Source of the DNA: a bacterium
GTDB taxonomy: Bacteria > Vulcanimicrobiota > Xenobia > Xenobiales > JADMJV01
DNA length: 64,000 nucleotides
Assembly (NCBI GenBank): GCA_018780265.1
Contig: JADMJV010000021.1
Span: 1-64,000 of the forward strand
Direction of reading: 5' to 3'
Shown here in pieces: positions 21,383 to 22,189 of the stretch. The notes under the pieces are model-generated. The model was not told where the DNA came from, did no database searches, and saw nothing but the letters and a program-made list of their open reading frames with translations. A program made the translations under genes and the position numbers. Each line of letters starts with the position of its first letter. Positions within the stretch are counted from its first letter, which is position 1.

Positions 21383-21506
21383 CTCCCTATCTTTCCCGAA
21401 CGGGCCGATCGCTCCTGGGCAGATCTTTTTTTGCCGGACCCCTAGACGATGGTTGGAAGGTGCGTGATAAGAAATTGCTGGACCTCAAGTCCCGGCGCAT
21501 AACGCG

Positions 21507-21546
21507 CTGTTCACATCTTTTTAACGTGATGTTACAACCTGTTCAC
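21507..21546 (+). promoter_or_regulatory. Direct repeat CTGTTCAC x2, 32 bp start to start, in the promoter region of the Gly/Met-rich protein gene.
   Basis: 'gcgCTGTTCACatc' at 21507-21514 and 'acCTGTTCACctg' at 21539-21546, about 95 bp upstream of the ATG at 21641. Confidence 0.3.
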
Positions 21547-21640
21547 CTGGTTAGCATTACGCTGACAATTGGCTCGCCGTTTTCCCCTGTCGCCCGCTTA
21601 CTCTGAGCCCAGAGAAAGAATTCGAGGAGGCGCGAGTCAA

Positions 21641-22141
21641 ATGTTTGGAATGAACACCGGAATCAATCCCCTGGCTATGAATCAGATGAGTCAGATGATG
21701 GGTGGCGGTCTGGGCCAACAACTGATGGGTGGTCTGGGCGGAGTGGCTCAGGCCGGTGGGGCGATGGCAGTGGCCGGTCCCGGTGGATGTTCAGCCTGCG
21801 CTGGCTCTGGAGGCTTTGGCGGACTGGGCGGGCCCCAGGGAGTGCCCGACTTTGGCAACAGTTTTGGCGGTCCGTGTGGTGGACCCGGCGGACCCGGCGG
21901 ACCCGGCGGACCCGGCGGACCCGGTGGACCCTGCAAGGGCAAGATGATGAAGAAGATGCGCAAACTGATGAAGCAGATGCAGCGCTTGATGGCCCAGATG
22001 GGCGGCGGGATGAACCCGATGGGCGCCGGCAATCCGATGGGCGGAGCGATGTCCCCCGGGGGTCCCGGTGGCGCAATGGCCGTGGCCGGACCCGGTGGAG
22101 CCTTTGCCTCGCCGATGGGCGGAATGCAGCGCCTGGTTTAA
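21641..22141 (+). CDS. Gly/Met/Pro-rich low-complexity protein with (GGP)n and Met-rich basic segments.
   Basis: GAGGAGG Shine-Dalgarno 9 nt before the ATG at 21641. Sequence 'MFGMNTGINPLAMNQMSQMMGGGLGQQLMGG...GGPGGPGGPGGPGGPGGPCKGKMMKKMRKLMKQMQRLMAQMGGGMNPMG...'. No signal peptide. Confidence 0.6.
   Translation: MFGMNTGINPLAMNQMSQMMGGGLGQQLMGGLGGVAQAGGAMAVAGPGGCSACAGSGGFGGLGGPQGVPDFGNSFGGPCGGPGGPGGPGGPGGPGGPCKGKMMKKMRKLMKQMQRLMAQMGGGMNPMGAGNPMGGAMSPGGPGGAMAVAGPGGAFASPMGGMQRLV
21881..21931 (+). repeat. Tandem 9-bp repeat (GGACCCGGC) x5.6 inside the CDS, encoding GGPGGPGGPGGPGGPGGP.
   Basis: Near-perfect head-to-tail copies with a single C-to-T in the fifth unit. Confidence 0.85.
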
Positions 22142-22165
22142 GTCTAAAGAACCGGTAGTCAAGGA

Positions 22166-22189
22166 CCACTCGAAAGGGTGGTTTTTTTC
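22166..22189 (+). terminator. Rho-independent terminator after the Gly/Met-rich gene.
   Basis: ACCAC-ucgaaagg-GUGGU stem-loop followed by T7, 25 nt after the stop. Confidence 0.55.

Follow-up and report, generated by a model that had tools for sequence, protein, structure and literature searches.

A rare family of Gly-rich proteins with a basic, Met-lined helix, represented in a 64-kb stretch of Vulcanimicrobiota DNA

Gene structure, expression signals and annotation

The stretch of 64,000 nucleotides considered here (assembly GCA_018780265.1, contig JADMJV010000021.1, positions 1 to 64,000; hereafter the whole 64-kb stretch is called the window) derives from a bacterium of Candidatus Xenobiales, placed by the NCBI lineage within Vulcanimicrobiota, alias Eremiobacterota or WPS-2, and carries at 21641-22141 a gene for a Gly- and Met-rich protein, the subject of this analysis. 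Relative loci or contigs are labelled L### and relative proteins P####. The product displays a content of 33% Gly (a preliminary description of the DNA, made from the letters alone, had put it at ca. 40%, a value corrected here by composition count), 13% Met, and 10% Pro, an isoelectric point of 10.1, and a single acidic residue, with eight of the nine basic residues of the 166-residue chain located inside one predicted helix. The gene and its signals comprise the following features, all on the forward strand:

21507-21514 and 21539-21546 (+): two copies of CTGTTCAC, 32 bp apart
21539..21569 (+): conserved upstream block, candidate promoter core (yTrTTmAy, ~13 nt, AyGnnnACA), from the alignment of four orthologous intergenic regions
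21601..21614 (+): small leader palindrome CTCTG-AGCC-CAGAG, 10 nt upstream of the Shine-Dalgarno sequence
21624..21630 (+): Shine-Dalgarno sequence GAGGAGG, 10 nt before the ATG
21641..22141 (+): protein-coding gene, ATG at 21641, stop at 22139-22141, 166 amino acids plus stop
21758..21805 (+): first AxAxAGPxGAxAxAG-type module, residues 40-55 GAMAVAGPGGCSACAG, from family alignments
21878..21931 (+): (GGP)6 linker, residues 80-97, between Cys79 and Cys98, encoded by a 9-bp array
21935..22003 (+): basic amphipathic helix, residues 99-121 KGKMMKKMRKLMKQMQRLMAQMG, from AlphaFold2 and the heptad pattern
22067..22114 (+): second module of the hairpin type, residues 143-158 GGAMAVAGPGGAFASP, with the same sequence in the window, L140, and L001
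22130..22138 (+): motif R-L-V at the very C-terminus, the protein ending in QRLV
22161..22192 (+): intrinsic terminator, a hairpin at 22161-22186 (11-bp stem, GAAA loop) followed by a T run

The open reading frame (ORF) at 21641-22141 is a real, monocistronic gene on which purifying selection acts. Compared with L140, the closest ortholog (78% amino acid identity), the differences are distributed 30/19/81 over the three codon positions, with a Nei-Gojobori ratio of nonsynonymous to synonymous substitution rates (dN/dS) of 0.13, and compared with L001 they are distributed 51/41/97, with a dN/dS of 0.17; across comparisons the ratio in this frame spans 0.13-0.30. The frame is free of stops in all 16 homologous genes and is the sole frame that is always open, each of the other five being interrupted in at least 7 of the 16. 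The preliminary description had proposed a real protein in this frame, preceded by a strong ribosome-binding site and followed by a clean terminator, and had pointed to conserved antisense frames as the finding that would speak against it; protein, ribosome-binding site, and terminator are borne out, and conserved antisense frames are not seen. Orthologous loci retain the N-terminal sequence MF.INP(L/M) and the stop as well as the GGAGG box and a terminator, the GGAGG core lying at an equal distance from the start in L140, L011, and L001. The 61-nt terminator region folds with -17.4 kcal/mol (z = -1.9), and L001 displays a different hairpin and T run at the equivalent position. An Rfam scan of 20900-22700 gave no match.

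A spurious ORF, arising by chance in low-complexity, GC-rich DNA or mirroring a gene on the opposite strand, might be suspected given that (i) the NCBI record of the source metagenome-assembled genome (MAG) appears to hold no protein for the locus, (ii) long antisense ORFs are present, and (iii) one family member, in L013, was called on the antisense strand; nevertheless, the low dN/dS, the breakage of every alternative frame among the homologs, the conservation of start, ribosome-binding site, stop, and terminator, and profile matches as strong as E = 1e-30 to 1e-61 effectively refute this explanation.

Both genes flanking the locus in the source MAG carry NCBI protein records; the neighbouring entries, MBT9583331.1 (149 aa, IV102_08270), MBT9583332.1 (56 aa, IV102_08280), and MBT9583333.1 (203 aa, IV102_08285), span 20933-23205. 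Their accessions are consecutive and the tag IV102_08275 appears unused, which suggests that the public record contains no protein for the Gly-rich locus. The Gly-rich protein, taken from five possible starts, is absent from a collection of 15 billion proteins, as are the products of three ORFs that overlap it in alternative frames and of two more that lie immediately downstream. The gene is likely missing, or marked as a pseudogene, in the public annotation. In L013, the source's own gene call at 3289-3831 (-) reads in antisense through a member encoded on the + strand (~3163-3741), an example of the wrong-strand calls to which the low-complexity, GC-rich genes of the family are prone.

The preliminary description had also drawn attention to direct repeats in the promoter. 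The two copies of CTGTTCAC and their 32-bp spacing are real, but their frequency is no more than that expected by chance: the 8-mer occurs 2 times in the whole window against 2.1 expected, and shuffling the 258-bp intergenic region produces some exact direct repeat of at least 8 nt in 31-42% of cases, while 62% of real 258-bp segments of the same sequence contain one. At the equivalent positions, L140 reads TGTTAAC and TGTTCAT, and L011 reads TTGTAAC and TGTTCAT. The exact repeat has no statistical weight; a real cis-element is nonetheless possible in this region because the downstream copy falls within the 21539-21569 block, conserved across the four orthologous loci. Two promoter assignments for the block were rejected: a sigma-70 consensus scan returned no site in the upstream region or in the block itself, and the GG-N10-GC pattern of a sigma-54 promoter, read by eye, is not kept in L011. 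The leader palindrome is more consistent across orthologs than the exact CTGTTCAC repeat, reading TCTGAATTCAGA in L140, TTCTGAATTCAGAA in L001, and TTCT-CGGGTT-AGAA in L011, a TTCTG..CAGAA type with a variable centre in the four orthologous loci; judging from this alignment, it could be an operator or a hairpin in the leader RNA.

The Gly-rich family and the architecture of the window protein

The window protein belongs to a rare, previously undescribed family of ca. 35 sequences of 136-188 residues, all of metagenomic origin. Three relatives came from a word-index search of 5.8e9 proteins, and a later search of this type, started from an alignment of 18 sequences, gave 17 clusters. HMMER, run in full with a profile against 1.84e9 cluster representatives, yielded only 17 at E < 1e-3, and an alignment-based search of metagenome contigs gave 5 loci. 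All the family clusters found are metagenomic, unnamed, and devoid of Pfam domains. The relationship is strong at the level of individual sequences, phmmer matching the window protein to P0001 with E = 1.5e-20 over 98% of the query. Including six-frame scans of fetched loci, 34 full-length members were collected.

Homology searches, proposed in the preliminary description as a check, thus recovered relatives for the protein, and gave no match in Pfam, NCBIfam, PDB sequences, or the literature. Searches of Pfam, NCBIfam, and PDB sequences with the window protein and 24 members returned no family, the best hit being a weak DUF4175 at E = 0.16; against Pfam, the window protein gave no match even at E = 10. 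The profile searches yielded no matches outside the Gly-rich family, viral contigs contained no members, and a profile scan of genome contigs with alignment A1 found no confirmed relative. A literature search for the family motif strings returned zero papers, and generic searches gave only analogies. A degenerate DNA pattern for FQ[AQ]GFQQG had at least 120 matches in genome contigs, nearly all due to chance; among the matches listed, there was one true locus (L058, with two paralogs) and one weak relative (L100). L058 (CAZYPN010000086.1) is the only named genome with members of the main clade of the family and is labelled 'uncultured Burkholderiales bacterium'; the contig may be mis-binned, since its neighbour genes match those of unlabelled metagenomic loci. 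The L100 protein, encoded at 5553-6392 (+) in the Vulcanimicrobiota MAG contig JAFKGI010000002.1, comprises ~280 residues and matches weakly (E = 0.003 in a small search); it displays hydrophobic Gly-zipper-like ends, a KKKKR patch, five repeats of the NPFQAGFQQGF type, and a Met/Gln-rich helix, and looks membrane-anchored.

The members share a fixed order of motifs, comprising (i) an N-terminus MGGVxK or MFxINPL followed by (I)S(I)AxSLxxGLG; (ii) a palindromic AQAFAG-PNG-AFAQAG module of the AxAxAGPxGAxAxAG type, followed by GGLGSF, usually CGC, and ALAGNFG; (iii) PQNPFQAGFQQG within a variable Gly/Gln/Pro linker, followed by the basic three-heptad helix AKMKKLMRKMHRLMAQM, with a hydrophobic face made up mostly of Met, and GGG; and (iv) a tail rich in Gly that carries another hairpin module and usually GGAFASAGPGGAFASAG, ending in (P)R-L-F/V/I at the free C-terminus. 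The helix is the most conserved block of the family, GAxAxAG motifs are recurrent throughout, and a C-terminus of the R-[LFP]-[FVILY] type is found in nearly all of the 34 tabulated members. Composition varies widely around this order, with Gly at 19-38%, Met at 3-9%, a net charge of +3 to +12, and 0-6 Cys. Two or three copies occur together in L003, L004, L006, L013, L058, and L134.

Placed in the family alignment, the window protein is a divergent member, forming a sub-clade with L140, L001, and L011/L012 (P0028, P0008). It retains the helix and the two hairpin modules, the motifs at both termini (RLV at the C-terminus), and NFG in the form DFGNSFG. Its divergence lies in the absence of both CGC and PQNPFQAGFQQG: the segment between GGLG and NFG that holds the CGC(G) motif is deleted, and C(GGP)6C stands in place of PQNPFQAGFQQG / FQAGFQQG, a position at which L001 still reads YQAGMQAG. 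CGC and PQNPFQAGFQQG are also missing from some other members, and three members have no Cys at all. In the first module, residues 41-55 read AMAVAGPGGCSACAG, with the second arm altered to a CxxC that is common to L140; in the second module, residues 145-158 read AMAVAGPGGAFASP.

Residues 99-123 read KGKMMKKMRKLMKQMQRLMAQMGGG, matching the family pattern K-M-x-K-L-M-R-K-M-x-x-L-M-x-x-M followed by GGG. The helix comprises three exact heptads, [MMKKMRK][LMKQMQR][LMAQM..], with Met and Leu at positions a, d, and e and a hydrophobic moment of 0.69. Lys and Arg are limited to residues 99-115 and 164 of the protein, and trypsin would accordingly release a 98-residue and a 49-residue peptide of a size that escapes shotgun proteomics. 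The AlphaFold2 model built from the family alignment has a mean predicted local distance difference test score (pLDDT) of 50, with the helix at 74-82 and nearly all the rest below 50, so that the intrinsic disorder claimed in the preliminary description holds as a prediction. The model of P0003, a typical member, is much alike, with the helix at residues 85-117 and pLDDT up to 87, and adds a low-confidence β-hairpin exactly at AQAFAG-PN-GAFAQA. As had also been claimed, the window protein displays no secretion signal: no signal peptide or transmembrane segment was detected (best 19-residue Kyte-Doolittle mean of 1.18, no Lys or Arg in the first 35 residues), nor any Sec/Tat signal, double-glycine leader, or pilin leader; the same hydropathy and charge measure reveals a clear signal peptide in the 149-residue neighbour. 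The window protein is predicted to be cytoplasmic.

The Met-rich segments cited in the preliminary description are present as given. The Met enrichment is of two kinds. A content of 13% is common only to the window protein and L140, compared with 4% in L001 and L011 and 3-9% in the rest of the family. The seven helix Met residues at heptad positions a, d, and e correspond to Met in 58% and to a hydrophobic residue in 73% of the other members. Of the 21 non-initiator Met residues, 14 lie outside the helix, correspond to Met in 4% of the other members, and are conserved only between the window protein and L140.

The (GGP)6 run is encoded, as the preliminary description had it, by a near-perfect 9-bp tandem repeat. 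Tandem Repeats Finder delimits the array to 21881-21931 (unit GGACCCGGC, period 9, 5.7 copies, 97% matches), the only array in the window with a score of at least 60; with a further GGP unit before Cys79, there are 6-7 GGP triplets overall. The orthologous site holds six units in the window, five in L140 (imperfect repeats, 80% matches), and three in L001. The repeat length, which the preliminary description expected might vary between strains, does differ between related lineages, the variation seen so far being between species or genera. Independent in-frame tandem expansions occur at other sites, 21 bp x 3.2 (GGGLPGL) in L011 and 15 bp x 9.2 (GGGFG) in L137. On the sequences compared, Gly-tract length is evolutionarily labile in the family, given the three, five, or six GGP units among orthologs and the separate expansions in L011 and L137. 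The window array looks recently expanded or homogenised, as its units are near-identical at the DNA level. In L137, the member at 275-889 is nearly identical to P0002 (L002) over its N-terminal two-thirds, its tail being replaced by a (GGGF/GGGGF)n expansion, a difference that points to tail swapping or expansion between paralogs.

A contingency locus, as had been proposed, is not supported in the sense of phase variation. It lies in frame inside the ORF, and a 9-bp unit, being a multiple of three, keeps the frame at every copy number, so that slippage changes linker length only and the array is no on/off switch; its behaviour is like that of a variable number tandem repeat rather than a phase switch. 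A scan of metagenomes with exact 29-mer flanks recovered no copy-number variant from the same species and no conspecific contig across the whole array. One independent contig alone, L139 (Logan, SRR12964613), is identical to the window; it covers positions 20710-21910 and ends inside the array. Short-read de Bruijn assembly is expected to stop in such repeats, and six units is the as-assembled count. A collagen-like triple helix with Cys knots was considered and rejected, on account of only 6-7 GGP triplets, Gly at X, no Pfam match, and the absence of the upstream Cys in L140.

Genomic context

The genes closest to the Gly-rich gene in the window are the following:

17707-20151 (+): MVP-like protein of 814 aa (MVP shoulder, Vault_3, Band_7/SPFH), upstream of the Gly-rich gene region
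20148-20948 (-): DUF1570 protein with HExxH (IHESQH) and an N-terminus resembling a signal peptide, encoded in the same direction as the 149-aa protein in every syntenic locus
20933..21382 (-): divergent 149-aa protein with signal peptide, MBT9583331.1, the syntenic partner in the window sub-clade
22339-22509 (-): 56-aa acidic-tailed protein, MBT9583332.1, convergent with the Gly-rich gene

L001, L140, and L011/L012 share with the window the divergent arrangement of the Gly-rich gene, the 149-aa protein, and the DUF1570 protein, which from its motifs looks like a secreted metallopeptidase, and GCA_041445565.1 probably does too; L141 and L142 have the 149-aa and DUF1570 pair but lack the Gly-rich gene. 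The MVP-like gene suggested a vault cargo, an idea that was rejected, as this gene is absent from the syntenic L011 and L140 and present in L141, which has no Gly-rich gene.

The main clade displays a different neighbourhood. In eight loci (L002, L003, L004/L005, L006/L007, L013, L058, L134, and L137), one P450 ortholog (64-89% identity) adjoins one to three paralogs despite rearrangements, and a GNAT acetyltransferase and a 455-aa protein without Pfam domain also adjoin where the contig extends far enough. Cyclophilins, a type III polyketide synthase (PKS), and acetate kinase lie in the same vicinity. A coupling of the window gene to a P450 was rejected: the window P450 is of a different family, 27% identical to that of the main clade, lies 4 kb away, and is missing from the syntenic L011.

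Proposed function and comparison with known systems

We propose, tentatively and with a probability of roughly 40%, that the protein is a self-associating cytoplasmic scaffold or a gel- or condensate-forming protein. The Met-lined helix would bundle with its own copies or lie on an anionic surface (that of a membrane, RNA, or polyphosphate, for instance), and the uncharged Gly-rich arms, with their two β-prone hairpin modules and FG/GP motifs, would provide weak multivalent contacts, helix and arms together building a scaffold that assembles reversibly as a network, gel, or condensate. The (GGP)n run would do no more than separate the N-terminal arm from the helix as a flexible spacer of adjustable length, the apparently recently expanded in-frame (GGP)6 array having overwritten the variable linker in the window gene, and the conserved C-terminal tip might dock to a partner or serve as a degron. 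The separate in-frame repeat expansions in different members fit multivalent, expandable arms, and paralogs clustered in twos and threes in six loci are as expected for abundant structural or scaffold proteins. Several points weigh on the other side: low AlphaFold confidence is no proof of disorder, and the pLDDT of the predicted hairpin modules stays below 50; an all-cationic helix should self-repel unless a polyanion or membrane is involved, and a stable coiled coil is usually longer than three heptads; the two sub-clades have no conserved partner gene in common, being accompanied respectively by the 149-aa/DUF1570 and the P450/GNAT/455-aa genes; and the window sub-lineage, having lost CGC and FQAGFQQG and doubled its Met, may have shifted function.

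The same helix could instead lie flat on a membrane, a lipid body, or an anionic or hydrophobic inclusion, with the Gly-rich arms forming a brush, as in phasins or membrane-targeting sequences. Such a surface coat, which we consider unlikely, would account for the large hydrophobic moment, the wide a/d/e hydrophobic face, and the concentration of positive charge on the helix, and is in line with the location of main-clade genes near lipid and polyketide genes (type III PKS, P450) and with the weak relative in L100, in which FQAGFQQG and Met/Gln-helix modules stand between hydrophobic Gly-zipper ends; this neighbourhood, however, is seen in one clade only and not in the window sub-clade, and no inclusion-body genes were identified. 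Buffering or sensing of Cu(I)/Ag(I), possibly Zn, through thioether, thiolate, and imidazole ligands of the Met helix, the N-terminal MNQM/MM, and the four Cys, perhaps in a helical oligomer, starts from the fact that Met-rich motifs bind Cu(I) in CopC, CusF, CueO, and Ctr1. The window protein has eight MxxM motifs and four Cys (CxxC, C-X18-C); at helix positions 106, 110, 117, and 120, 12-15 of 17 other members have Met itself rather than just any hydrophobic residue; His is frequent within the helix (RKMHRLM); and the window/L140 sub-lineage raised its Met to 13% and kept it under purifying selection, L140 adding four His and a Cys around the helix (HGKCHKMKKMRKLMHMMKH). Yet the 14 Met residues outside the helix are not conserved beyond the sub-lineage, the helix Met residues are replaced by Ile, Leu, or Gln in P0001, P0005, and P0027, and Cys is dispensed with in three members. 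The window protein has no signal peptide, and, to our knowledge, the known Met-motif Cu(I) proteins act outside the cytoplasm; moreover, no copper, silver, or other metal-resistance gene (cop/cus/pco/sil) is found in the window or the related loci. From this pattern of conservation, metal binding is possible, not a family trait, and a role in metal buffering or sensing is improbable as the function.

Two further explanations place the protein outside the cell or under the action of its neighbours. The silk-like composition with GPGGx and AxAxA modules, the secreted neighbours in the window sub-clade (the 149-aa protein with its signal peptide and the DUF1570 protein with HExxH), an FHA-T2SSE ATPase between the paralogs in L134, and an ORF downstream in L001 whose first 39 residues resemble by eye the N-terminal domain of a type II/IV secretion ATPase would suit a non-classically exported structural, adhesive, or antimicrobial protein, such as a silk-, elastin-, or amyloid-like matrix or a Gly-rich bacteriocin. 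We regard this as highly doubtful, because the protein displays none of the export signals or transmembrane segments considered above, no dedicated transporter is conserved beside the gene across loci, and members of 136-188 residues conserved over their whole length are unlike known leaderless bacteriocins. The adjacency of the main-clade P450 ortholog to one to three family genes in eight assembled loci, with GNAT and the 455-aa protein beside, might also mark the proteins as substrates or precursors modified by the neighbouring P450 and GNAT, whether in the manner of a ribosomally synthesized and post-translationally modified peptide (RiPP) or as a cross-linked coat protein. This appears very improbable, given that the loci may simply be phylogenetically close, that the window P450 is only distantly similar, remote from the gene, and absent from L011, that P450 NCBIfam scores fall far below every specific cut-off, and that the proteins are long, show conservation over their full length, contain little Tyr or Trp, and have no leader/core organisation.

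For the scaffold or gel reading, the closest functional parallel is the tardigrade protein CAHS D, in which amphipathic helical linkers bundle and β-prone, largely disordered termini, held apart by the helix, network to form a reversible gel (PMC10949331). The window family likewise displays one confident amphipathic helix flanked by two hairpin-type modules, but there is no sequence relationship, profile, Pfam, and PDB-sequence searches giving no match; the CAHS linker is zwitterionic and far exceeds in length the purely cationic helix of ~23 residues found here; and the arms of the window protein, a bacterial protein known here from sequence and models, are uncharged and rich in Gly, Pro, and Met. 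A bolder version, in which helix-plus-sticky-arm proteins of this family reversibly gel or phase-separate the cytoplasm, convergently with CAHS, and so serve desiccation or starvation survival of Vulcanimicrobiota in oligotrophic habitats, is decidedly improbable; the phylum has been described as abundant in oligotrophic environments (PMC9758169). If it were true, Met-lined helices would give dynamic bundling, in-frame slippage of Gly repeats would tune material properties, and the extra Met and Cys of the window sub-lineage could add redox or metal responsiveness.

Other known systems share single elements with the family. The window protein resembles CopC/PcoC, CusF, the Met-rich insert of CueO, and Ctr1 in its MxxM clusters with Gly, Asn, and Gln, and in the His and Cys near the helix of L140; it differs in having no homology to them, no export signal, no metal-resistance context, mostly lineage-specific Met residues, and helix Met residues on the heptad hydrophobic face, as expected for packing. 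The C-terminus of the SRP54/Ffh M domain and the G/M-rich region of Sis1-type J-proteins present Met-'bristle' hydrophobic surfaces, the plastic Met side chains giving promiscuous, dynamic hydrophobic contacts. A Lys/Arg/Met amphipathic helix followed by GGM-type low complexity (KMMKKMRKLMKQMQRLMAQMGGGMNPMG) recalls these regions, but the protein lacks an NG/GTPase or J domain and shows no detectable homology, and the resemblance is compositional only. With the contingency loci of Neisseria, Haemophilus, and Campylobacter, the gene shares a near-perfect short-unit tandem repeat within a coding region; it differs in that the 9-bp unit cannot switch frame, the copies number only ~6, and the variation seen so far (3/5/6) lies between species or genera. 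Silk, elastin, and FG-nucleoporins share the GPGGx, AxAxA, and FG/NFG/GFGG motifs with Q/N spacers and the plasticity of repeat length by in-frame expansion, whereas the window protein has ~15 kDa and a fixed, non-repetitive motif order rather than long arrays, and no homology to them.

The proteins constitute a new, unannotated family of a broadly known kind, namely bacterial low-complexity, helix-anchored intrinsically disordered proteins. Few bacterial low-complexity or disordered proteins have defined roles, and gene callers and domain databases systematically miss them. The conserved modular grammar of helix, two hairpin modules, C-terminal tip, and expandable Gly spacers, in a family from a nearly uncultured phylum, makes a tractable system in which to ask whether such a protein acts as a scaffold, gel, coat, or metal buffer. 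Even if the family were mere lineage-specific filler, the loss of low-complexity genes from annotations would still stand as a lesson.

Some further genes of the window lie apart from the Gly-rich locus or concern it only through position. Bacterial homologs of MVP were earlier reported from Myxococcales, Cytophagales, and Oscillatoriales (bioRxiv 10.1101/872010), and the MVP-like protein of the window is probably one from Vulcanimicrobiota. For the regions 3474-5758 (+) and 651-1304 (-), a circularly permuted ATP-grasp protein with a caspase-like (Peptidase_C14) protein after it is noted, together with an AbiEii-type nucleotidyltransferase toxin elsewhere in the window.

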